From a virus (lineage: Duplodnaviria > Heunggongvirae > Uroviricota > Caudoviricetes), in the IMG/VR virus record IMGVR_UViG_2737471818_000007: a DNA stretch of 47,226 bases, one strand, 5' to 3'. Every line of letters begins with the position of its first letter. The first letter of the stretch is position 1. The notes under the pieces are model-generated. The model was not told the DNA's origin. It saw only the letters and a list, made by a program, of their open reading frames with translations, and did not search any database. Both the position numbers and the translations under genes were made by a program. Below are positions 3,653-39,857 of the stretch, piece after piece.

Positions 3653-6600
3653 TCAGACCACGCTGATGCCCAGCGCCTGTTTCTTAATCACCATAACCTG
3701 CACATCGCTGGCAAACGTATCCGGCGGAATATCTGCCGAATGCCGTGTGGACGTAAGCGTGAACGTCAGGATCACGTTTCCCCGACCCGCTGGCATGTCA
3801 ACAATACGGGAGAACACCTGTACCGCCTCGTTCGCCGCGCCATCATAAATCACCGCACCGTTCATCAGTACTTTCAGATAACACATCGAATACGTTGTCC
3901 TGCCGCTGACAGTACGCTTACTTCCGCGAAACGTCAGCGGAAGCACCACTATCTGGCGATCAAAAGGATGGTCATCGGTCACGGTGACAGTACGGGTACC
4001 TGACGGCCAGTCCACACTGCTTTCACGCTGGCGCGGAAAAGCCGCGCTCGCCGCCTTTACAATGTCCCCGACGATTTTTTCCGCCCTCAGCGTACCGTTT
4101 ATCGTACAGTTTTCAGCTATCGTCACATTACTGAGCGTCCCGGAGTTCGCATTCACGTTACCGCTGATATCGGCATTTTTCGCCGTCAGCCGCCCATCCG
4201 GTGTCAGGGAAAATGCCGGAGGATTACCGCCGCTGGTAATGGTCGGAGCCGTCAGGCGTTTCAGGAACACGTCGTTCATGAATATCTGATCGCCCTGACC
4301 AACAAACATTGGTCTTGTGTTGCCATTAGACGGATCAATAAACGCGATACGGTTAGCGGCAACCAGGAACTGGCTCAGTTTGCCTTCCTCCGTGTCCTCC
4401 ATGCTGAGGCCAATACCCGCGACATAATGTTTGCCGTCTTTGGTCTGCTCAATTTTGACGCCCCACATGGCATTCCACTTATCGTTGGCGTCCTTCCACT
4501 CTTTCGAAAACTCCTCCAGTCTGCTGGCGTTATCCTCCGTCAGCTCGACTTTTTCCAGCAGCTCCTTGCCGAGATGGGATTCGGTTATCTGGCCTTTGAA
4601 AAAATCCAGGTAACCTTCCGCATCATCGCTCGCCCGACCGACGGCCTCCACGAATGCCGATTTGCCAACGGTGTTCACACTGCGGATATAAAAGTAATAA
4701 TCATGGCCCGGTTTGATATTGATACTGGCGGCTATCCAGTACAGCCCCGTGCCAAGGTAGCGGGCTGTGGTTTCAACCTGCCTGATATCGGTAATCCGCG
4801 TTTCGGAGAACCAGAACTCAAACTGTACCGTCGGATCGTAAACCGCAAGATGCGGCGTGGCGGTTATCTGAAAATAGCCCGGCATCAGCTCAATCCGAGA
4901 CGGCGCTGCCGGTGCGGCAATCCGGAACGATACCGATGCCGGATCGCCCTGCTGTCCCCACGCATTTACCGCCCGGACTGTCAGCCTGTAGTTCCCCAGC
5001 GCCAGTTGCCTGAAGCGGTATGTGGTTTCCGTCGTCCGGGCCGTGCTGACCAGCCGCTCACTGCCGTCGTCCGCTGTTACGGTCAGGCGAAGCAGGAAGC
5101 TCACCCCCTTCACCACCTTCGGTGTGTCCCAGCGCGCCAGCACCTGATATTCCCCGCTGTCTGCGGTGACTTCTGCGGTCAGGTGCTGCACCGCTGGCGG
5201 CGTGACACCATTTACCGTGCCGCTCTGGTCGCCGTCAAAGTGCGCCCCGTTATCCACGATGGCCTCTTTTTCCGGTACATGCTGCACGGCGGTGATGGCA
5301 TACGTGCCGTCGTCGTTCTCACGGATACTCACGCAGCGGAACAGGCGCTGGCGCAACGTCGGCAGCTTCAGCCCCCATACGCTGTATTCAGCAACGCCGT
5401 CAGGAACACGGCTCACTTTCACCTTCACGCCGTCGGTGACGGACTGAACCTCCACGCTGACCGGACTCCCCTGCCCGTCAACCAGGCTTATCAGCGTGGT
5501 GCCGGAAGATGGCAGCGTGATTTCACGGTCGAGCGTCAGCGTCCGGGTCTGGCTGTTTACCGCCAGCACGCGCCCGCCGGTGCGGATACCGGCATAGTCA
5601 TCATCGCAGATTTCAATGACATCGCCCGGTACATGGCGAAGCCCTTCGGCACCCACGCTGAAGTCCACGGTCTGCGTTTCCAGCAGTTCTGTTTTAATCA
5701 GCCACAGCCCGGCGCGGTGTGCCTGCCCCCGGCTGGTACAGCCAAAGGCATCCATCTTCGTAACATTACGACCGTAACGGGCAATGGCCTGCGTATCTTC
5801 AACAAGCTCTGTCGCCGTCTCCCAGCCGTTATTCGGGTCAATCCAGTTCACCTCAACGGCATTATGGCGGTCCTTCAGGGCGCTGAAGCTGTAGCGGAAC
5901 GGCGCGCCATCATCCGGCATCACCACATTACTGCGGTTATAGGTCCACGCCTTATCCGACGGTCGGTCCTGCACGAACGTCAGCGTCTGCCCGTTCCATA
6001 CCGGCATACAGCGCATCGCCGAGCAGAAATCGCTGAGCACATCCCACGCCTTACGCTGTGTGGTCAGGTACGCATTACAGGTGATGCGCGGCTCCGTGCC
6101 GCCAAAGCCGTCCGGCACTGACTGGTCGCAGTACTGGCCGATGACATACAGCGCCCATTTATCCACATCCGCCGCACCAAGACGTTTCCCCATGCCGTAG
6201 CGCGGATGGGTCAGCATATCCCACAGACACCAGGCCATGTTATTGCTGTATGCTGGTTTAAACGTTCCGTCCCAGATACCGCTGTATTGCCGCGTCTGCG
6301 GGTTATAGTTCGACGGCACCTGCAGAATGCGCCCGCGAAGATGATAATTACGACTCACCTGCTGGCTGCCGAACTGCTCCGAGTCCACCTGTACACCGAC
6401 CAGTGCCGTGTTCGGGTAGCCCTGTTTCACATCGATGATTTCGGTGTATGACGACCAGAGCGTTTTGTTCTGCAGCTGGTCTGTAGTGCTGTCCGGCGTC
6501 ATTCTGCGCATCCGGATATTAAACGGGCGCGGCGGCAGGTTACCCACCACCACCGAGGCCAGATACTGCGAGGTGGTTTTGCCCTTAATGGTGATGTCTT

Positions 6601-27056: not shown

Positions 27057-28106
27057 TTAACCCGCCTGCTCCATTATTTCACCAACGGTCTGTTCAAAAC
27101 GTTCTTTTTCCAGTTCCACGCCAGTCGCCCTGCGTCCCAGTGACAGTGCCGCTTTTATTGTCGCCCCCGACCCCATAAAAAAATCGGCAACCAAATCACC
27201 GGGGCGACTGCTGGCCTCAATTATCTGCCGCAACATATCGGCTGGTTTTTCACAGGGATGTTTGCCCGGATAATACTGCACGGGCTTGTGCGTCCAGACA
27301 TCCGTATACGGAACGGCAACTGATACGGAAAAATAACGCCGCAGGGATTTGTACTCCTTCAGCAGGCTGGCATATTGCCGGTTCAGTTCACTGTATGTGC
27401 TGACCAGCTGGTGGTGTGGCTTTTCCAGTTCCCCGCGTTGATGTTTTTCTGCTGCAACACGCGCAAACAACGCCTGTAATTTCAGATAATCACCTTCGTT
27501 CGGCAACTGCCACTGACTGATACCAAACCAGTGCGAAGCCATGTTTTTCTTTCCGGTGGCTTCCGCTATCTGTTTTGACGTTATTCCCAGTGATTCACGC
27601 GCATCACGAAAGTAAGAAATCAGCGGGGCCATGACGTGCTGTTTTAGCTCGCTCCCCTTTGCCGCATAGCCGTCATTTTTGGGCCGGTATGGCCCCTGAT
27701 AATGTTCTGCAAACAGAATGCGTTCTGTTGCCGGGAAATACGCCCGCAGGCTTTCCTTGTTGCATCCGTTCCAGCGTCCGGACGGCTTCGCCCAGATAAT
27801 GTGGTTCAGCACATTAAAGCGCTCACGCATCATGATTTCGATATCAGATGCCAGGCGATGACCACAGAACAGGTAGAGACTTCCGGCAGGTTTCAGTACC
27901 CGCCAGAACTGCGCCAGACACTGTTCCAGCCATTTCAGGTAATCATCGTCGCCCTTCCACTGGTTATCCCAGCCCTCGGGCTTCACTTTAAAGTATGGCG
28001 GGTCTGTGACTATCAGATCGACTGAGTTTTCCGGTAAGGTCTGGATAAATTCCAGGCAATCAGCGTTGATTAACTCACAACTGGATATTTTTACAGTATT
28101 AACCAT
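27057..28106 (-). CDS. DNA methyltransferase, beta-class N6-adenine/N4-cytosine type
   Basis: 349-aa ORF with ATG at 28106; motif IV DPPY near the N-terminus (LIVTDPPYF) and motif I FxGxG near the C-terminus (DFFMGSGAT). Confidence 0.8.
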   Translation of the reverse strand: MVNTVKISSCELINADCLEFIQTLPENSVDLIVTDPPYFKVKPEGWDNQWKGDDDYLKWLEQCLAQFWRVLKPAGSLYLFCGHRLASDIEIMMRERFNVLNHIIWAKPSGRWNGCNKESLRAYFPATERILFAEHYQGPYRPKNDGYAAKGSELKQHVMAPLISYFRDARESLGITSKQIAEATGKKNMASHWFGISQWQLPNEGDYLKLQALFARVAAEKHQRGELEKPHHQLVSTYSELNRQYASLLKEYKSLRRYFSVSVAVPYTDVWTHKPVQYYPGKHPCEKPADMLRQIIEASSRPGDLVADFFMGSGATIKAALSLGRRATGVELEKERFEQTVGEIMEQAG

Positions 28107-28713: not shown

Positions 28714-30117
28714 ATGGCTCGTAAAGATTTCACTCAGCAAATAGACATTCCAATTCAAAATATCCTCCTCGATACTGAAAATGCCAGAATCCGCGCAGGT
28801 AGAGATCAAAACAACTGCATTTCAAGGATATTGCGTAAAGAAAACCAGATGCTTGTATTGATGGAGGATATTGCAGAAAACGGACTTACAACCATGCCCA
28901 TATTGGTTATGCCTCACTCAGAAGGTAAATGGGTAGTTAAAGATGGTAATAGACGAATAACAGCTTTAAAACTATTAAATAACCCAGATAGTTGCCCGGA
29001 ACCACATTTAATTCCGAAAATAAAAAAAATAAAAGAAAAATATCATGACAACATACCTACTACTGTTGACTGTTTATCAAGTGACAATTTTGAAGCAGTA
29101 TTTAAAGAGATAATAGCAAGGCATTCTGGAGCACGTAATGGTGCTGGTCAATATGACTGGTTTGCATATATGCGAACAATTTATCTATTAAATAATGGAC
29201 ATCCAACTGATTATAAAAGAGCTGGTCAATATATGTGTTGGGCTGAACAAGAAGGCATTGATGTAGATGATGATTTCCCAATCACTAGTGTAGCCAGATT
29301 CTTTACTAGAGATAATCTTCTATTGTTAGGATTTGAAGTGGAAAATGATAAATTGAAGCCAATACTCTCAAAAGAAAAAATAATAAAAATGGCCTCAAAA
29401 ATTAATAGCGACTTTTCTTCAAAAATAGTTGATGTTAACACCGTCTTTAATCCTAGCGATGCAAAGAAATATCTTTGCTCGGTAAGAAAATATGCAGGAA
29501 TAATAGATGATTTTGCTTACAATAGTGATGACACAGAACAAGAAAATAATAAAAAAGAAGAAACAAATAAATGTTCCTCTCCATCTGAAGTGGATAACAA
29601 TAATGCGCAATCAGATAGTAAGAGTGACGCACCTGTACTACTAAAAAAACACGCAGGTAGAGGAGGTACACCTAAAAAAATACCAGCAGAGCGAAATAAA
29701 ATTTTTGGTAGAGGAAAGCCTGGAATTACTATTCCTGAAAATGAGACTAAAATAAGAACTATAATCTCAGAACTTAGGCAATTAGATGTAAAAAAAACAA
29801 CTCTTGCAACTGCATTTCTTCTTCGGGCACTGCTGGAGTTAAGTGATAAAGAATATAGAACAATTAACAAGTTGCAAGATAAAAAAAGCTTAGCTAAAAA
29901 TATTGCTAATAGCGCAGATCATATGTTGAAAAATAATCTAATCACTGACTCAGAACACCATATAATATCAGCTTATACTCGCGGCGAGCAAGGAACTGTG
30001 CACATTGAAACTTTACAAAAATTAATTCACAGAGAGACACATCACCCAGATTATATCTCAATTAATGTTTTTTGGGACAATATAGGTTGTTTTGTTCGAG
30101 CTTGTTGGAAAGATTAA
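28714..30117 (+). CDS. ParB/Srx-fold (DGxRR motif) N-terminal domain protein, unknown function; candidate nuclease or defence protein
   Basis: 467-aa ORF with ATG at 28714; N-terminus has ParB-like motifs (ILLDTENARIR; GLTTMPILVMP; VVKDGNRRITALKLL); Lys-rich low-complexity linker; His-rich C-terminal domain; very AT-rich. Confidence 0.65.
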   Translation: MARKDFTQQIDIPIQNILLDTENARIRAGRDQNNCISRILRKENQMLVLMEDIAENGLTTMPILVMPHSEGKWVVKDGNRRITALKLLNNPDSCPEPHLIPKIKKIKEKYHDNIPTTVDCLSSDNFEAVFKEIIARHSGARNGAGQYDWFAYMRTIYLLNNGHPTDYKRAGQYMCWAEQEGIDVDDDFPITSVARFFTRDNLLLLGFEVENDKLKPILSKEKIIKMASKINSDFSSKIVDVNTVFNPSDAKKYLCSVRKYAGIIDDFAYNSDDTEQENNKKEETNKCSSPSEVDNNNAQSDSKSDAPVLLKKHAGRGGTPKKIPAERNKIFGRGKPGITIPENETKIRTIISELRQLDVKKTTLATAFLLRALLELSDKEYRTINKLQDKKSLAKNIANSADHMLKNNLITDSEHHIISAYTRGEQGTVHIETLQKLIHRETHHPDYISINVFWDNIGCFVRACWKD

Positions 30118-30163
30118 AATAATATACCACGCTGGACTAATTTATTAGTCCAGCGTACAGTTT

Positions 30164-31018
30164 TCATTTCTTCTTCATAGAGGGAGTGCTATGAATATTT
30201 AAATTTTTATATACCATAAGTTCTGTAACTCTTGGCCTTGTCAAATGAGTTGAGTAATGTAAAGAAAACTCCACAATTTTTTCGTCTTTATATAACTTCC
30301 TGATTTCTTCACAATTATCATATGTAACAATTATCGGAGTGGAAATATCCTTAACCTTTTCAGAAATTAATTTATGATCATGAGGTTTATAATGATTTCT
30401 ATAAAGCTGGCTACCTTTTTCATAATATGGAGGATCAAGATAAATTAGAGATTTTTTTGGTAGTGTATTTTTTATACTACCAATCAACTCACAGGCATCC
30501 AAATTATAAAGATCAATAAATTTTTTCATTCCACCTATTTTTTTTACTCTTTCACATAGTTTCTTCTTATTATACCTAGCATCAATCTTATATTTACCAC
30601 TCTGTTCTTTTCCTCCTATAACCCCACCTGATAAGATTCCAGAACGATTGGTTCGATTGAGAAAAAACGTAGCAAAACCAATAGATAAAATATCATGTTT
30701 AGTATAATTGTTTATTACATCTTTTTGCTTATACCAATTATCCATTGTTACTTCTGTTTCATTTATCAATGAAATAAATTTATCATTCTCATTTAACACT
30801 GACCACCAAAATGAGTAAACAACAGGATCCAAATCATTAATAATGACATGATCTACATATCCATGCATTAGCAAATACAATGCAGCTCCTGCGCCGCCAG
30901 CATATGGCTCCACATAATACCCACCACTAATTCCGTTATACCTCAGCAGTTCTGATATCCAAGGCCCCATCCTCCCTTTTCCACCGGGATAACGTAATGG
31001 GGTAAAAAATGTAGTCAT
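30164..31018 (-). CDS. DNA adenine methyltransferase, D12 (Dam-like) class
   Basis: Track ORF 30164..31054 trimmed to the ATG at 31018 (MTTFFTPLRYPGGKGRM..); motifs YPGGK, VEPYAGGAG, FLNRTNRSG, YLDPPYY parallel E. coli Dam; AT-rich; convergent with the ParB-like gene. Confidence 0.8.
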   Translation of the reverse strand: MTTFFTPLRYPGGKGRMGPWISELLRYNGISGGYYVEPYAGGAGAALYLLMHGYVDHVIINDLDPVVYSFWWSVLNENDKFISLINETEVTMDNWYKQKDVINNYTKHDILSIGFATFFLNRTNRSGILSGGVIGGKEQSGKYKIDARYNKKKLCERVKKIGGMKKFIDLYNLDACELIGSIKNTLPKKSLIYLDPPYYEKGSQLYRNHYKPHDHKLISEKVKDISTPIIVTYDNCEEIRKLYKDEKIVEFSLHYSTHLTRPRVTELMVYKNLNIHSTPSMKKK

Positions 31019-31105
31019 GCTGAACCTCATACAAAACCAGGAAATTAAATGCATTTTACCCTAAATCACATCAATTCTAAATAACTAAATTAACAGTATT
31101 AAAAT

Positions 31106-31459
31106 TCAGTTATCTGAAAGTATAAATAGCATCCCATCAACGAACCCCAATGCTGTTTGTAGTTCTTTTCTGATTGTGCCATCTGAACACTTCCGCTTTT
31201 TTGCAATTGTACGGAGAGAAATCCCGATAACAAAGTGAGCAATGATCAGCTCATATTCTTCTGGTTTATATTTCCGCAACCGGGCCACACATCCATCAAT
31301 CATAATTCCTTCATCATCATCGCACTGGAGACGTGACATTTTACCGTGTGGTAGAAGCCCCTTGAAGCCTGCCGCTATCGACTGCCAATCAACACCACTA
31401 TTTTCTGCTGCAGCCCATGCCCCCCAGCGGTCTAAAACCTCATACATATCACGCCCCAT
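31106..31459 (-). CDS. Q: late-gene antiterminator Q (QuuD / phage 82 Q family)
   Basis: Track ORF trimmed to the ATG at 31459 preceded by AGGTG; ..LDRWGAWAA..SIAAGFKGL..CDDDEGIMIDGCVARL.. resembles DLP12 QuuD (recalled). Confidence 0.75.
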   Translation of the reverse strand: MGRDMYEVLDRWGAWAAAENSGVDWQSIAAGFKGLLPHGKMSRLQCDDDEGIMIDGCVARLRKYKPEEYELIIAHFVIGISLRTIAKKRKCSDGTIRKELQTALGFVDGMLFILSDN

Positions 31460-31820
31460 TACTAACACCTCTAATTTCGCAAATCTTCACGCCCAGCCGA
31501 CCACCAGGAACGGGCTGACCGCGCACAATATTAATTTCATCAAACTGCTCGTCGTCGATAAGCAGTCCCGCATGCGTCAGCGCATCCAGCGGTGCTTTCA
31601 GGATATTGTCCAGATCACGACGGCGCTTATCCGGTGGCTCTGCAATAATCTTTATCGCCAGCCTTCCGGACAGGTTTAATTTCAGCCGCTGCTGGCAAAC
31701 AATAAGCGCCACATCCCGGCGATAACGCTCACCGGCTTTTGATACAAAATATGTGCTGCCACGACGTCGCCAGTAGGTGTTCACCGTTGGCGGGTAAGGC
31801 AAAACAAACTCTATACGCAT
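31449..31820 (-). CDS. rusA: RusA Holliday-junction resolvase
   Basis: 123-aa ORF; PPTVNTYWRRRG..RRRDLDNILKAPLDALT.. matches RusA-family motifs. Confidence 0.85.
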   Translation of the reverse strand: MRIEFVLPYPPTVNTYWRRRGSTYFVSKAGERYRRDVALIVCQQRLKLNLSGRLAIKIIAEPPDKRRRDLDNILKAPLDALTHAGLLIDDEQFDEINIVRGQPVPGGRLGVKICEIRGVSNGA

Positions 31821-33682: not shown

Positions 33683-34168
33683 TTAGTTTTGCTGTTCTAT
33701 TTTAAGCTTGATAGTTTCATACAAAACAATAGTTGCGCCTGTTTTACATAATTCCCGACTGTCATACGCACGAGACCAATAACACAACCAATTTTCAAGC
33801 TCTTCTCGTGTATAAATTTTACAGGCCAGCCCCTCAGCCATCTCTACAACTTCATCGCCTGGCGCGGTTAATTCGTATCCATTTAACAATAAAAAAACCG
33901 CACCAGCCATCATTGCTGTGCGCTTGTTTGCATTGGCAAATGGATGATTCTGAATCAGACTTTCAATCAATACCGATGCCAGTACAAACATGTCGTTGGT
34001 TTGCTCATACCATCGAACCATACTGGGACGAGACTGAGAAGAACTTAAATTATCAACACTCAGCACACCAACAGGTTCATCTGGTGTTTGAAGCTCAATT
34101 AAAAGGCGATTGATTTCAGTAAGATCATCAACCGAGAGGTAGTGCACTCCTTCAACAATCTCAGCCAT
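33683..34168 (-). CDS. Fic/Doc-family toxin (Doc-like)
   Basis: Track ORF begins at TTG 34177, ATG at 34168; contains HPFANANKRTA matching the Doc motif HxFx(D/N)(A/G)NKR. Confidence 0.75.
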   Translation of the reverse strand: MAEIVEGVHYLSVDDLTEINRLLIELQTPDEPVGVLSVDNLSSSQSRPSMVRWYEQTNDMFVLASVLIESLIQNHPFANANKRTAMMAGAVFLLLNGYELTAPGDEVVEMAEGLACKIYTREELENWLCYWSRAYDSRELCKTGATIVLYETIKLKIEQQN

Positions 34169-34186
34169 AGAGCACAATACCCATCA

Positions 34187-34576: not shown

Positions 34577-34732
34577 TTACTCCTCAGATTCGTAAGCTGT
34601 GAAGACAGCGACCTCCGTCTGGCCGGTTCGGATTCGTACCTCGCAGAGGTCTTTCCTCGTTACCAGTGCCGTCACTATGACGGTTAAACAGATGACGATC
34701 AGGACGATTAACATCGCCTTTTGCTGCTTCAT
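34577..34732 (-). CDS. hok: Hok/Gef-family type I toxin
   Basis: 51-aa ORF MKQQKAMLIVLIVICLTVIVTALVTRKDLCEVRIRTGQTEVAVFTAYESEE, classic Hok; below the ORF-track size cutoff. Confidence 0.85.
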   Translation of the reverse strand: MKQQKAMLIVLIVICLTVIVTALVTRKDLCEVRIRTGQTEVAVFTAYESEE

Positions 34733-35381: not shown

Positions 35382-35897
35382 TCACCGTAAAACATCCTCC
35401 ACGCTTATCAGTCCGTTTCGCTTCAGGTAGTCCATCGCCATCTCCGGTAATTTGCAGTCTGGATTAGCTTTTTTCAGTTGACTGACCAGTAGTTTAACCC
35501 ACATTGTTAATTCGCTAACCTGATTGCCGGAAGCTGGTGGGTTGTCGGCTTTACCCAGAATGACAGCACTGCAGGCCTCTTTGAGTACCCAATCAACAGC
35601 ATCTTTCCATGCTCCTGTTTCGACTGGTGGATTCTCACGCTTTACCTGTTCATAAAAGCGCACGGCTTTAACCAGTCCTTCTGATGTCACCGGAACTGGC
35701 GGGGCAGTGAATAAGGCCTGAATCTCATAGCTCTGCCTGTCGTTGCAATCCTCTTTTGTCGGTACATATTTCCAGTCACCAATCCACATCTTCTCCTGAA
35801 AGTCCGTAACGCCTTTTTTCACATAGCGATATCGCCATGCAACTGGTTTTGCCTGCCCTACCGTTTCATGCCCTTCCTGATAATTAATCTCGCTCAT
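35382..35897 (-). CDS. hypothetical phage protein
   Basis: 171-aa ORF; its ATG overlaps the stop of the upstream 56-aa ORF (ATGA). Confidence 0.55.
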   Translation of the reverse strand: MSEINYQEGHETVGQAKPVAWRYRYVKKGVTDFQEKMWIGDWKYVPTKEDCNDRQSYEIQALFTAPPVPVTSEGLVKAVRFYEQVKRENPPVETGAWKDAVDWVLKEACSAVILGKADNPPASGNQVSELTMWVKLLVSQLKKANPDCKLPEMAMDYLKRNGLISVEDVLR

Positions 35898-36064
35898 TCA
35901 TCGCCCCACTCATCACAATATGCTTCGACAGGTGTTTTTCCTGCTTCGTAGTCATCACGCCAGGCTTCAGCTGTACTTCCTCCACGTAACTCTGCATAAT
36001 CCATTAACAGTTCATGCCATTCTTCAAAACTGACGTTGTATTTAGTTGAACCAAAATCAGCCAT
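35894..36064 (-). CDS. small acidic protein (56 aa, below the ORF-track cutoff)
   Basis: MADFGSTKYNVSFEEWHELLMDYAELRGGSTAEAWRDDYEAGKTPVEAYCDEWGDE; strong RBS GAGGAGGAAGG; start overlaps the stop of the 60-aa ORF and stop overlaps the start of the 171-aa ORF. Confidence 0.55.
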   Translation of the reverse strand: MADFGSTKYNVSFEEWHELLMDYAELRGGSTAEAWRDDYEAGKTPVEAYCDEWGDE

Positions 36065-36239
36065 TTTGTCCTTCCTCCTCGTCTTTTATTTCGTGATATG
36101 AGTAATTGCAGTAGTTAAAGAAAATTTCTTTTGCTTCGTCATGAATTTCATCAGGTGTTGCGTCATCGTCCACTTCGAATACATCCTCAAAATCCCCACC
36201 AGCTATTCCCGTTTCAATAATTATTTTGAACTTTCGCAT
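36057..36239 (-). CDS. small highly acidic protein (60 aa)
   Basis: MRKFKIIIETGIAGGDFEDVFEVDDDATPDEIHDEAKEIFFNYCNYSYHEIKDEEEGQNG; translationally coupled to the next ORF. Confidence 0.5.
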   Translation of the reverse strand: MRKFKIIIETGIAGGDFEDVFEVDDDATPDEIHDEAKEIFFNYCNYSYHEIKDEEEGQNG

Positions 36240-36383
36240 TTCACTACCGCCCTTTCGGGTGGCCTCCTGATGTTCTGAGGGTGCAGAAATCCCTCCGGTT
36301 AAGGATTAAATTTTATTTACAGAACTGAATTTAATTATTCAGATATACGTATCTGTAACCTTACTAACCTACTCACTGGATGC

Positions 36384-36857
36384 CTATTTCATAAAAATAA
36401 TCCAGTGGGTTTTATCGTTTTTTCCTGTTCGTTGACCGATAACAGGTTTTCTGTCGGTCAGCACCAATATCTGGCGAACAGGTATTTGCGTTTCATTCCA
36501 TTTAAAAATCAGAACGCCGGATGGACGCAACACACGAAAGGCTGCTTTAAATCCCTGCCGCAAATCATCACGCCAGGTATCTTTATTCAGCCGTCCATAT
36601 TTCTTTCCCATCCAGGCGTTATCACCAACACGCTCAAGATGCGGAGGGTCGAATATAACCATCGAAAAAGATGCGTCTGCAAATGGTAGTGCACGAAAAT
36701 CAGCTATCAGATCAGGACTGATAATCAGGCATCGTCCATCACACAATGTGTGCTCTTCCTTTCTGATATCGCTAAATATCGCCCGGTCGTCATTCTTATC
36801 GAACCAGAACATACGGCTGCCACAGCACATATCAAGAATGGTTACCGGTGTACTCAC
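36384..36857 (-). CDS. small methyltransferase-like protein (phage Dam-like, DPPH motif)
   Basis: 157-aa ORF with motif-I-like ILDMCCGS and motif-IV-like VIFDPPH; nin-region position. Confidence 0.55.
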   Translation of the reverse strand: MSTPVTILDMCCGSRMFWFDKNDDRAIFSDIRKEEHTLCDGRCLIISPDLIADFRALPFADASFSMVIFDPPHLERVGDNAWMGKKYGRLNKDTWRDDLRQGFKAAFRVLRPSGVLIFKWNETQIPVRQILVLTDRKPVIGQRTGKNDKTHWIIFMK

Positions 36858-37291
36858 AGCATCACCTCCTGATAATTACCCTGATAGAACGCCAGCACAC
36901 GCTGCATAACCTCACTCTGCCGGCACTCGCTACAGATTATAATCAGACGCCTGTCATAGCGGCGTATTTCTCCGTCTGGTAATGACCAGATAAGGTCAGG
37001 ATCAACCACAACCGTTTTTTTCACCTTTGCCCTGGATAGTTTTTTGCGGGCGTTTTGCCAATCCTTACGAGCCTGTTCAGAGGGAAATAACCCATAGCCA
37101 GAGTTGTATACATCGCCACTGGCAACCAGCTCTCTGGCGAGAACGCTCATCAGATATCTTGTCGCACCTGTTTTAGCTTCCAGTTGCCGTAACGTCTCAC
37201 GACCGCTCTGGCGCACGAGTTCAACCACCTGCCCTTTAATTTTTTCCCGCTCTTCTTGTGTAAATACTTTTGCCATAAGCGCCTCCGGCAA
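36854..37291 (-). CDS. hypothetical phage protein
   Basis: 145-aa ORF, ATGA-type overlap with the downstream gene; no family recognised. Confidence 0.45.
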   Translation of the reverse strand: MPEALMAKVFTQEEREKIKGQVVELVRQSGRETLRQLEAKTGATRYLMSVLARELVASGDVYNSGYGLFPSEQARKDWQNARKKLSRAKVKKTVVVDPDLIWSLPDGEIRRYDRRLIIICSECRQSEVMQRVLAFYQGNYQEVML

Positions 37292-38084: not shown

Positions 38085-38831
38085 TTACTTCACAACCCTT
38101 AAATGGCTGACATTTGAACGCCAGCTATCCCAGTTAAAATTCACCCAGCGACCACCGTTCATGGCCATGCGGTCCATCACGCGTTCGCCAAGCAGCGTAT
38201 TCATCGCCGCATGGTTCAGATTCGTCAGCATCCCGACGCTGTGCATCGAGGCCGTTCTGCGATCGAATATCTGGTTCAGTGTGACCTGTTCGTTACGCGT
38301 ATCCCGCTGCATACCGATTTCATCCAGGATAAGCAGGTCAACTTCACACAACCCCTGCAAAAATTTTTCGCCTGAGTTTTTGTTGTCGTAGTTGCCGTGC
38401 AACGCCAGCATCACATCCGCCACCGTCACAACAATCACGCTGCGACCTTTCGCCAGAAGATGGTTACCAATGGCTGCTGCCAGATGATTCTTTCCGGTAC
38501 CAGGCTTACCGCTGAACACAAAATTCGTGCACCCGCTCATCAGTTCGTCTGCAATGGACTTCGCCTGGCTGAGTGCATGACGCTGTCCGTCGTTCTGCAT
38601 CTGGTAATTCGCAAACGAACATTTCTGGTGCAACGGCTGAATACCGGAACGATTCAGGAATTTTTCCACCCGCAACTGGCGATTCTGGCGGTTAATCTCC
38701 TCGCTACGTTTTCGCTCTTCTGCAAGCTGCCACTCTCTCCACTCGTCCACTGTCCGGTACCGCGCGGTTACATGCTGCGGGGCCAGCTTACGGATACGTT
38801 CAAGAACACCACCTGCCGCAATATTTTTCAT
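38085..38831 (-). CDS. DnaC-like helicase loader (IstB-type AAA+ ATPase)
   Basis: 248-aa ORF with Walker [16 protein letters not shown] and Walker B LLILDEIG; lambda P position. Confidence 0.85.
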
Positions 38832-38837
38832 GGCCCG

Positions 38838-39857
38838 TTACCCCCTGAACCCCGGCGGAATTTCGGTGTCCGGCTCGGAAATGTGATTCACGCAACGCTG
38901 CGCGGGACCACGCCACAGTCGAATCACCAGTTCATCCCATTTTTCACGGAGTTTTGACGGGCTCTTGATGTTTTTTATCCAGAACGGATCCCGTTGTGCC
39001 CGACTAAACATTTCGCAAATTTGCCTGTGAGTTCTGCCGTCAAGCACCCGCATCATGCGCACGTCATTGGCCCACTCTGTCCAGTTAGGTTCTTTAGGAC
39101 GCGTGATCTCGCCATCATCGCTGGCAGCCTGTTCGTAAAGACTGACAACTCGCCCCCAAATCCACTGAGCGCATGCCAAATCTTCCTGGGTTCCCCACCG
39201 ACTTTTTTTCGCACTGAACACAACCGCGTCAGGATGTCGGGTTAAAAAATCCGGTTCAGTCGTCTGCGGGTCCGGTTGCGAAGCTTCCGGACGAAAAGTG
39301 TTTTTATTCTCTGTAGTAATCTCTGTTGTATTCTCTGTAAGATCATCAGGCCATTTTGACCCGATGACATTGGGTCGTTTTGAACCAATGGAGCGTTTCA
39401 TTTTGACCTCTTCCATCGTGTCATTTTGACCTGATGGAGCGGCGCATTTTGAACCGATGGATTCGTTCAATTTGCCACCATCTAAAAGCTCGCTCCCATA
39501 GTTGATCGTGTAGAAATTGGTCATATCGCGCTTTGATTTATTGAGCTTTTCACAACGCAAAAGCCCCAGCGTTTTCAGACTTGCAAACGCGCGCTTTAAC
39601 GTTGACTCTGACCAGAATGGGAACTGTTCCAGCCATTGTTCCGTTGTGTTATAAATCCAGCGAACACCATCACATTCCATACCGGAGTTGGTATCTCTCA
39701 ACCAGTAGTGCAGTTGTTGCAAAACAATGGCTTCGTTTAAGCCGATTCTCATTGCCAGCTGCGTGTTTATAACCAGTGGGCGTTCAGCAAAAAGAAGGCT
39801 CATAATTCCATCCAGCTTTTTGTTGGTATTGCTGTCGATACGCAAGTTTGAAAGCAA
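38838..39857 (-). CDS. replication initiator (O-like) containing the origin iterons
   Basis: 339-aa ORF; N-terminus ..MSLLFAERPLVINTQLAMRIGLNEAIVLQQLHYWL typical of phage replication initiators; the true start may be the ATG at 39803. Confidence 0.75.
   Translation of the reverse strand: MLSNLRIDSNTNKKLDGIMSLLFAERPLVINTQLAMRIGLNEAIVLQQLHYWLRDTNSGMECDGVRWIYNTTEQWLEQFPFWSESTLKRAFASLKTLGLLRCEKLNKSKRDMTNFYTINYGSELLDGGKLNESIGSKCAAPSGQNDTMEEVKMKRSIGSKRPNVIGSKWPDDLTENTTEITTENKNTFRPEASQPDPQTTEPDFLTRHPDAVVFSAKKSRWGTQEDLACAQWIWGRVVSLYEQAASDDGEITRPKEPNWTEWANDVRMMRVLDGRTHRQICEMFSRAQRDPFWIKNIKSPSKLREKWDELVIRLWRGPAQRCVNHISEPDTEIPPGFRG
39350..39480. repeat. origin-like iterons inside the O-like gene
   Basis: Five to six direct repeats of the form CATTTTGA(A/C)C(C/T)(G/A)ATGG at ~22-25 bp spacing, encoding repeated SIGSK peptides; as in lambda ori. 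Confidence 0.65.

Follow-up and report, generated by a model that had tools for sequence, protein, structure and literature searches.

A protein of 157 amino acids (aa), encoded in the lambdoid (Rac/Qin-like) Escherichia coli prophage of IMG/VR record IMGVR_UViG_2737471818_000007 (47,226 nucleotides; this whole stretch of DNA is referred to as the window), is predicted, with near certainty, to be an active class I amino-methyltransferase that depends on S-adenosylmethionine (SAM). It belongs to a very widespread, ordinary kind of phage gene, its SAM-binding and catalytic motifs are intact, and its catalytic part resembles a specific class of DNA methylases. The protein is probably an early-expressed orphan DNA amino-methyltransferase that would serve the phage against restriction. 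The coordinates and length of the open reading frame (ORF) given by a first, sequence-only reading of the window were exact; the strand, which had been left unstated, is the minus strand (Table 1). Placing the gene in the nin region, as was done there, is acceptable, the gene lying between O/DnaC-like replication genes and RusA/Q, just after the Ren-like DUF977 gene. The interpretation offered by that reading, a minimal phage Dam or a degenerate enzyme repurposed for regulation or anti-restriction, is overall partly supported.

Gene model, family and conserved motifs

The ORF begins with GTG, ends with TAG, and reads MSTPVTILDMCCGSRMFWFDK...VIFDPPHLERVG...THWIIFMK. Both the alignment of relatives and the nucleotide sequence support initiation at the GTG at 36857, which has AGGAGGT upstream; the only alternative in-frame starts are Met10 and Met16, either of which would lose the conserved first strand or loop. 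Because of the overlap with the DUF977 gene (Table 1), translation is probably coupled to the DUF977 stop codon. The copy in E. coli 1303 (NZ_CP009166; positions 4001-4474 of locus L083), which is the closest record and 99.8% identical over the gene, is annotated in RefSeq from Met16 as a protein of 142 aa (WP_225092187.1). This start leaves out window positions 36813-36857 and with them the SAM-binding loop, the invariant ILDxCCGS. Query residue 16 is likewise the first residue of several database representatives, and cloning of the gene from such models would be misled. A scan for promoters and terminators around the gene returned nothing beyond shuffled expectation, and no independent transcription unit is proposed. 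When the gene was compared with 63 gap-free homologues, nonsynonymous divergence (dN) ranged from 0.12 to 0.36 with synonymous sites saturated; in the eight pairs where synonymous divergence (dS) could be corrected, the median dN/dS was 0.21. By these sequence comparisons, the gene is under purifying selection along its entire length.

The protein matches the PHROG 954 'DNA methyltransferase' profile over residues 5-157 (E=4.4e-84), and the PADLOC profiles PDLC03288 (MTase_II; E=5.2e-72) and PDLC03730 (orphan MTase; 3.1e-49). A word-indexed search returned 7307 homologues, most of them 155-170 aa long and carrying the name 'class I SAM-dependent methyltransferase', and an exhaustive search returned 2009 clusters at 50% identity (E<=1e-3). 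Given the profile matches and this number of homologues, the ORF cannot be a product of chance. The gene is present in 877 of the 5426 complete E. coli genomes (16%), and its intact form, of about 155-165 aa, in 855 E. coli genomes and 245 phage records. With tblastn, it was located in 254 phage records representing at least six host phyla and, in addition, an archaeal virus; the phage hosts include Streptococcus, Vibrio, Acinetobacter, Porphyromonas, Listeria, Gordonia, Lactobacillus, Enterococcus, Staphylococcus, Corynebacterium and Bacteroides. Identity across these phage matches is usually 45-60%, and 35% for the haloarchaeal virus HSTV-1. RefSeq already carries an annotation of the gene, and both PHROGs and PADLOC list its family as a (DNA or orphan) methyltransferase. 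The view that the protein is short for a complete methyltransferase was not borne out: about 155-165 aa is the norm of the family, and PamA of a Staphylococcus aureus prophage, which is unrelated and has only 141 aa, is active (PMC12435837).

Relatives of 200-300 aa carry heterogeneous N- or C-terminal additions without a recurrent domain, and many of them apparently have mis-called starts. It follows that the core of 150 residues is the conserved unit and that the window protein represents the family at full length. That the N-terminal extensions of 50-150 aa represent a Lar-like or anti-restriction domain was considered and rejected, these extensions being heterogeneous and for the most part apparently due to mis-called starts; the Pfam domains in them, one ASCH and one DUF6291, do not recur. 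A conserved C-terminal extension of ~90 aa was observed in P0018, P0068 and about 25 other proteins of 246-255 aa from Leclercia, Citrobacter, Enterobacter and Klebsiella (...LESLLL..VWPAEV...HHQRRLKHHINRMWLEKM...); it has no Pfam match and may result from fusion with a downstream gene. Decayed alleles were also found. Phage PhiR42_1 contains a form of 118 aa next to an insertion sequence (IS; positions 4709-5065 of locus L001), and the 118-aa form, listed together with two further loci (L065 and L071), ends near an IS or transposase gene or at a contig end. Phage HannyBb retains a remnant of 68 aa (3934-4140 of locus L002), and four frameshifted copies (L037, L040, L041 and L044) are broken near residue 146. 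Such fragments probably account for the separate PHROGs 11564, 6151 and 7811.

In an alignment of 45 relatives with 40-91% identity to the window protein, residues D9, D30, R32, P48, D70, P71, P72, H73, R108, K119, W120 and P138 are invariant; C12, G13, D49, D53, Y87, G88 and W95, among others, are conserved in at least 90% of the sequences. Motifs I (ILDMCCGS) and IV (VIFDPPH), which the sequence-only reading had recognized, are both present and conserved in these relatives. That reading had also called for a fold prediction. The AlphaFold2 (AF2) model, with a predicted local distance difference test score (pLDDT) of 92.9 and a predicted template modelling score (pTM) of 0.88, displays a SAM-dependent class I Rossmann fold, that is, a seven-stranded beta sheet with a C-terminal beta6-beta7 hairpin. 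The Gly-rich loop of motif I, the acidic residue at the end of beta2 (D30) and the acidic residue of motif III (D53) are all in the places typical of class I; from their positions, D30 is expected to contact the ribose, and D53 the adenine-N6, of SAM. DPPH directly follows the beta4 strand (residues 64-70), as it does in motif IV of amino-methyltransferases. Nothing follows beta7, and a target recognition domain is absent from both the sequence and the model.

Relationship to the beta-class DNA methylases

When the query was scanned against Pfam (E<=1), no match was obtained to PF02086, PF05869, N6_N4_Mtase (PF01555), MT-A70, N6_Mtase (PF02384) or PF07669; there were only sub-threshold matches to Methyltransf_11 and Methyltransf_25. 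NCBIfam also gave weak sub-threshold matches only. The family profile was further aligned, with hhalign, to individual proteins that stand for the amino-methyltransferase classes and were drawn from the window and from E. coli K-12. YhdJ, a beta-class DNA adenine methylase (PF01555), scored 93.0% (E=3.4e-7; 104 columns, query residues 39-153 to YhdJ residues 11-124), and the PF01555 DNA methylase that is encoded elsewhere in the window (27057-28106) scored 91.2% (E=1e-6). The scores of the controls were far lower: 16.8% for the protein methylase PrmA, on motif I only, 1.6% for RsmD (N2-methylguanosine in 16S ribosomal RNA, rRNA), 1.2% for TrmN6 (YfiC; N6-methyladenosine in transfer RNA, tRNA), and 0.6% for PrmC, which methylates protein glutamine and has an NPPY motif.

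Within the aligned segment are the lead-in typical of the beta-class, xGD/PD...L..LP...S.DLi..DPPY/H, a Trp-containing linker, and 'RVLKPgG.l'. Over its catalytic two-thirds, the protein is thus similar specifically to the beta-class DNA N6-adenine/N4-cytosine methylases in their N-terminal half. The protein was nevertheless not filed as beta-class because its motif I is N-terminal, preceding motif IV, and because the recognition domain is absent. Alignment and model together suggest that it is best described as a circularly permuted beta-class relative without a recognition domain; circular permutation is well established among amino-methylases (PMC7544214).

Other classes were rejected. A minimal phage Dam, as suggested by the sequence-only reading, does not agree with the lack of any match to PF02086 (D12) or PF05869 (phage Dam) in the Pfam scan, nor with the 1.1% scored in hhalign by the D12 (Dam-class) methylase of the window (30164-31054). 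MT-A70 enzymes have DPPW where DPPH is found here; the MT-A70 enzyme of phage phiPA8, M.EcoPA8orf6770P, gave no BLASTP alignment and scored 0.5% in hhalign, and the upstream genes are unrelated. The order of motifs I and IV would fit the gamma-class (M.TaqI/HsdM), but the C-terminal domain of that class is missing, HsdM scored 0.1%, and neither PF02384 nor PF07669 was matched.

Predicted substrate and role

No restriction enzyme adjoins the gene, whose neighbors in the window are DUF977 and DUF7167, so that it does not have the makeup of a type II restriction-modification system; the PD-Lambda-5 system 5 kilobases (kb) away has a methylase of its own. When the ORFs directly upstream and downstream were clustered across 80 related IMG/VR loci (58-96% identity), they fell into 47 and 48 unrelated clusters, respectively, and neither a conserved partner nor an adjoining restriction enzyme was found among them. 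With no restriction enzyme next to it, the gene can be called an orphan cassette. Its location was the replication/recombination module in all eight distant phages sampled: it follows a DnaD-like loader and RecT in Listeria A006, is near RusA and a replication initiator in Enterococcus phiFL1A, and follows MCM in haloarchaeal HSTV-1; the others sampled were Gordonia Eviarto, Pectobacterium ZF40, Bacteroides LoVEphage, a Vibrio phage and pneumococcal IPP22. Over six distant host groups, the genes adjoining it encode a DnaD-like loader, RecT, a helicase, MCM or RusA. Another annotated DNA methylase is encoded at most 2.5 kb away in half of these eight (Eviarto, ZF40, HSTV-1 and LoVEphage).

DNA is the likelier substrate, a preference over RNA for which the similarity to YhdJ and to the PF01555 methylase of the window, the far lower scores of the controls, and the basic character of the protein (isoelectric point 9.18) are cited. 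In the mechanism that we propose, the gene would be transcribed leftward in an early (pR-type) operon consisting of cro, a YdaT-like gene, O, a DnaC-like gene, DUF1627, DUF977 and the methyltransferase gene; as a member of this operon, it would be expressed upon prophage induction or infection, with its translation coupled to that of DUF977. SAM would be bound via the N-terminal ILDxCCGS loop, D30 and D53, and its methyl group passed to an exocyclic amino group (N6 of adenine or N4 of cytosine), the target base being flipped out and resting against the invariant DPPH; the Asp in this motif favors adenine N6 as the predicted target. The substrate would most likely be replicating phage DNA, and progeny DNA would thereby be pre-methylated against restriction in the current and in future hosts. 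Since there is no recognition domain, sequence recognition must lie in the conserved loops (residues 12-25, the hairpin 33-47, 74-95 and 121-150). A homodimer may help, as in beta-class enzymes, which appear to need homodimerization (PMC7544214). With recognition limited to these loops, the recognized motif is expected to be short, or absent in the case of a non-specific enzyme.

Several observations weigh against this role on DNA. The helices that usually lie between beta1 and beta4 are missing from the AF2 model, as is a recognition domain, so that the model offers no account of how DNA would be recognized. The closest solved structures are not DNA methylases but the RNA and small-molecule enzymes PH0226, Trm11, TrmN, RsmC and Bud23; a search of solved-structure sequences with the sequence and the family profile returned marginal matches (PH0226 at 3.3e-5, RsmD-like and Trm11 at about 0.3). 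The query stays below the Pfam thresholds without a PF01555 match, and only one of 50 relatives matches PF01555, at 3e-4. Retention of 45-60% identity between phages from different phyla is also compatible with a universally conserved target other than DNA. M.EcoPA8orf6770P, a different small methylase of Shiga toxin (Stx) phages that was once annotated as a DNA adenine methylase, prefers 16S rRNA (PMC10810198). Finally, literature searches yielded no family member with an experimentally determined substrate or motif.

There is a minor chance that the protein is a minimal enzyme that, being free of a recognition domain, methylates adenine or cytosine almost or entirely irrespective of sequence, or else acts on a universally conserved RNA; the identity of 45-60% from coliphages to Gram-positive phages, and of 35% to the haloarchaeal virus, is cited for this reading. 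Its core, which is beta-class-like with motif I moved to the N-terminus, resembles the hypothetical I-IV ancestor drawn in PMC7544214. If this were true, blanket protection against many restriction systems, like that by M.EcoGII, would be achieved in under half the size. An RNA methyltransferase proper, which would modify a universally conserved host rRNA or tRNA and thereby alter translation or the frequency of prophage induction, as reported for M.EcoPA8orf6770P with PNB-2, is unlikely. The nearest solved folds, being RNA enzymes, would agree with it, as would the preference of M.EcoPA8orf6770P for 16S rRNA when paired with the upstream PNB-2 (PMC10810198), but neither that enzyme nor its partners are related to the proteins of the window, and RNA amino-methylase controls reached about 1% in hhalign. 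We also regard it as improbable that the protein is the catalytic subunit of a two-protein enzyme to which DUF977 supplies nucleic-acid binding and specificity. Despite the GTGA overlap, the common operon, and a DUF977 gene that immediately precedes the methylase gene in its closest relatives and across numerous E. coli genomes, only eight of the 80 related loci have DUF977 upstream, each of them with a methylase of at least 83% identity, and more distant relatives show dozens of different upstream genes. DUF977 weakly matches a 'DNA binding protein' PHROG, and the layout is like that of phiPA8 gp6-gp5, where a 143-aa protein gene overlaps that of a small methylase; however, DUF977 has no similarity to PNB-2, it also occurs in phages in which the methylase is truncated or absent, and the family is conserved in hosts whose sampled phage records list no nearby DUF977.

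The generic labels 'class I SAM-dependent' and 'UbiE-like' could be taken to mean that a protein or a small molecule is methylated. This is quite improbable, given that an invariant DPPH after beta4 marks enzymes methylating exocyclic or amide nitrogens and not those of the UbiE type (PMC7544214), that the segment match is to PF01555 DNA methylases and PrmC scored next to nothing, and that the protein is basic and its gene located in the replication module. Least probable is a degenerate, inactive relic or a SAM-binding protein repurposed as a regulator, the second suggestion of the sequence-only reading. The small size, the lack of a recognition domain, the sub-threshold Pfam matches, and the decayed alleles in other prophages (118 aa, 68 aa and frameshifted) might be seen as pointing in this direction; against it stand the invariance of the SAM-binding and catalytic positions, purifying selection over the whole length, the large number of intact copies in E. 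coli genomes and phage records, and the fact that the copy in the window is itself full length with a strong ribosome-binding site.

As annotated, the gene merely adds one more orphan methylase to a prophage already holding two others. The family is, however, very common and apparently has no member with an assigned substrate or motif, so a single methylome experiment would annotate thousands of genes. With ~150 residues and no recognition domain, the protein is near the minimum for a nucleic-acid methyltransferase, which makes it a compact candidate for studying the origin of specificity or, if it is non-specific, a candidate labeling tool.

The surrounding prophage and comparison with known systems

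The features of the gene and its surroundings are compiled in Table 1. In the leftward early operon, the Cro/YdaT-like region comes first, followed by the O-like initiator. The DUF1627 protein, encoded two genes upstream of the methyltransferase, has several weak winged-helix-type matches (MarR, TrmB, FeoC, PafC HTH) and weak CARF/Csa3-like PADLOC matches. Downstream of the methyltransferase gene are small ORFs, hok, a Fic/Doc gene, then DUF968/HNH, RusA and the Q-like antiterminator. The small ORFs (DUF7167 and neighbors) have ~90% DNA identity to genes of Stx2a-converting phages and of ArgO145; in those phages, the counterparts are located early-left (Ea22/ead), which illustrates mosaic exchange between phage regions. 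Two toxin-type morons, a Hok/Gef peptide and a Fic/Doc-family protein, are located in the nin region. Just downstream of the Q-like antiterminator is the two-gene anti-phage defense system PD-Lambda-5, consisting of convergent genes A and B, of which A has no Pfam domain and B encodes a D12/Dam-class methylase. The third methylase gene sits between this defense island and the holin/endolysin genes. Thus, the prophage carries three different amino-methylases.

Table 1. Positions of the methyltransferase gene, its sequence elements and neighboring genes in the window.
Feature	Coordinates	Strand	Basis or remark
Minimal class I SAM-dependent amino-methyltransferase (predicted), coding sequence, 157 aa	36384..36857	-	GTG start, TAG stop
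Shine-Dalgarno sequence AGGAGGT	36863..36869	-	6 nt 5' of the GTG start; direct sequence reading
GTGA start/stop overlap with upstream DUF977 gene	36854..36857	-	DUF977 ORF ends ATG CTG TGA
Motif I, SAM-binding loop ILDMCCGS, residues 7-14	36816..36839	-	alignment; beta1 = residues 7-11 (model)
D30, invariant acidic residue at end of beta2 (residues 26-30), motif II position	36768..36770	-	alignment and model
D53, motif III position	36699..36701	-	alignment; >=90% conserved
Motif IV, VIFDPPH, residues 67-73, end of beta4	36639..36659	-	alignment, model, DPPY of YhdJ and of window PF01555 methylase
Segment like N-terminal catalytic half of beta-class (PF01555), residues 39-154	36396..36743	-	hhalign
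DUF977 ('LygF'/Ren-like), upstream, co-oriented, overlapping	36854..37291	-	PF06163 E=4.7e-29; phrog_142
DUF1627, 256 aa	37292-38062	-	PF07789 E=1.6e-94; phrog_630
DnaC-like loader	38085-38831		leftward early operon
O-like initiator	38838-39857		leftward early operon
Small ORFs downstream (DUF7167 and neighbors)	35876-36342		
Hok/Gef peptide	34577-34732	-	PF01848 3.9e-23
Fic/Doc-family protein	33683-34177	-	PF02661 1.7e-11; phrog_577 'Doc-like toxin'
Q-like antiterminator	31106-31468		
PD-Lambda-5 defense system	28714-31054		
PD-Lambda-5 gene A, 467 aa	28714-30117	+	PADLOC E=3.5e-74
PD-Lambda-5 gene B, 296 aa	30164-31054	-	PF02086 1.6e-18; PADLOC 3.5e-115
Third methylase, 349 aa	27057-28106	-	PF01555 E=1.1e-43; phrog_67 and phrog_6025

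Of the known systems, the RNA enzymes Trm11, TrmN/Trm14 and RsmC/RsmD share no profile similarity with the window protein past the four-residue motif. Enzymes of this type carry THUMP or other RNA-binding domains and are encoded by cellular housekeeping genes, neither of which is true of the methyltransferase described here. The system of M.EcoPA8orf6770P and PNB-2 in Stx phages (PA8/933W-type) is similar in that a small lambdoid methylase without a recognition domain of its own is encoded in a 4-nt overlap with a preceding gene of about 145 codons. It differs in that its methylase belongs to the MT-A70 (DPPW) family and its gene is located near int, not after the replication genes; moreover, the gene preceding the window methylase is not conserved along with it. 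Homology with phiPA8 gp5, gp6 and gp7 (KP682374) was rejected after all three pairs had been compared, with no similarity between them; only the layout is alike.

Beta-class enzymes (PF01555: YhdJ, CcrM, M.PvuII and M.EcoGII) have in common with the window protein the (D/S)PP(Y/F/H) motif and the catalytic half that is aligned to YhdJ, a lead-in of the form 'xPD...DF..LPF.D.SF.LVVFDPPH' being among the aligned elements. Their order is motif IV, recognition domain, motif I, whereas in the window protein motif I precedes motif IV, a recognition domain is absent, and the size is about half. Phage-borne orphan members of the beta-class exist, for example, M.EcoGII (PMC7544214). PamA, a Dam-type phage enzyme with NPPY at residues 64-67, is an active GATC DNA methylase (PMC12435837). 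Like the window protein, it is a very small, stand-alone phage methylase, and the position of the PP motif is nearly equal (64-67 versus 70-73), despite the fact that there is no detectable sequence relationship between the two and that the window protein matches neither PF05869 nor PF02086. PamA demonstrates that full and sequence-specific DNA methylase activity is possible in so small a protein (PMC12435837).
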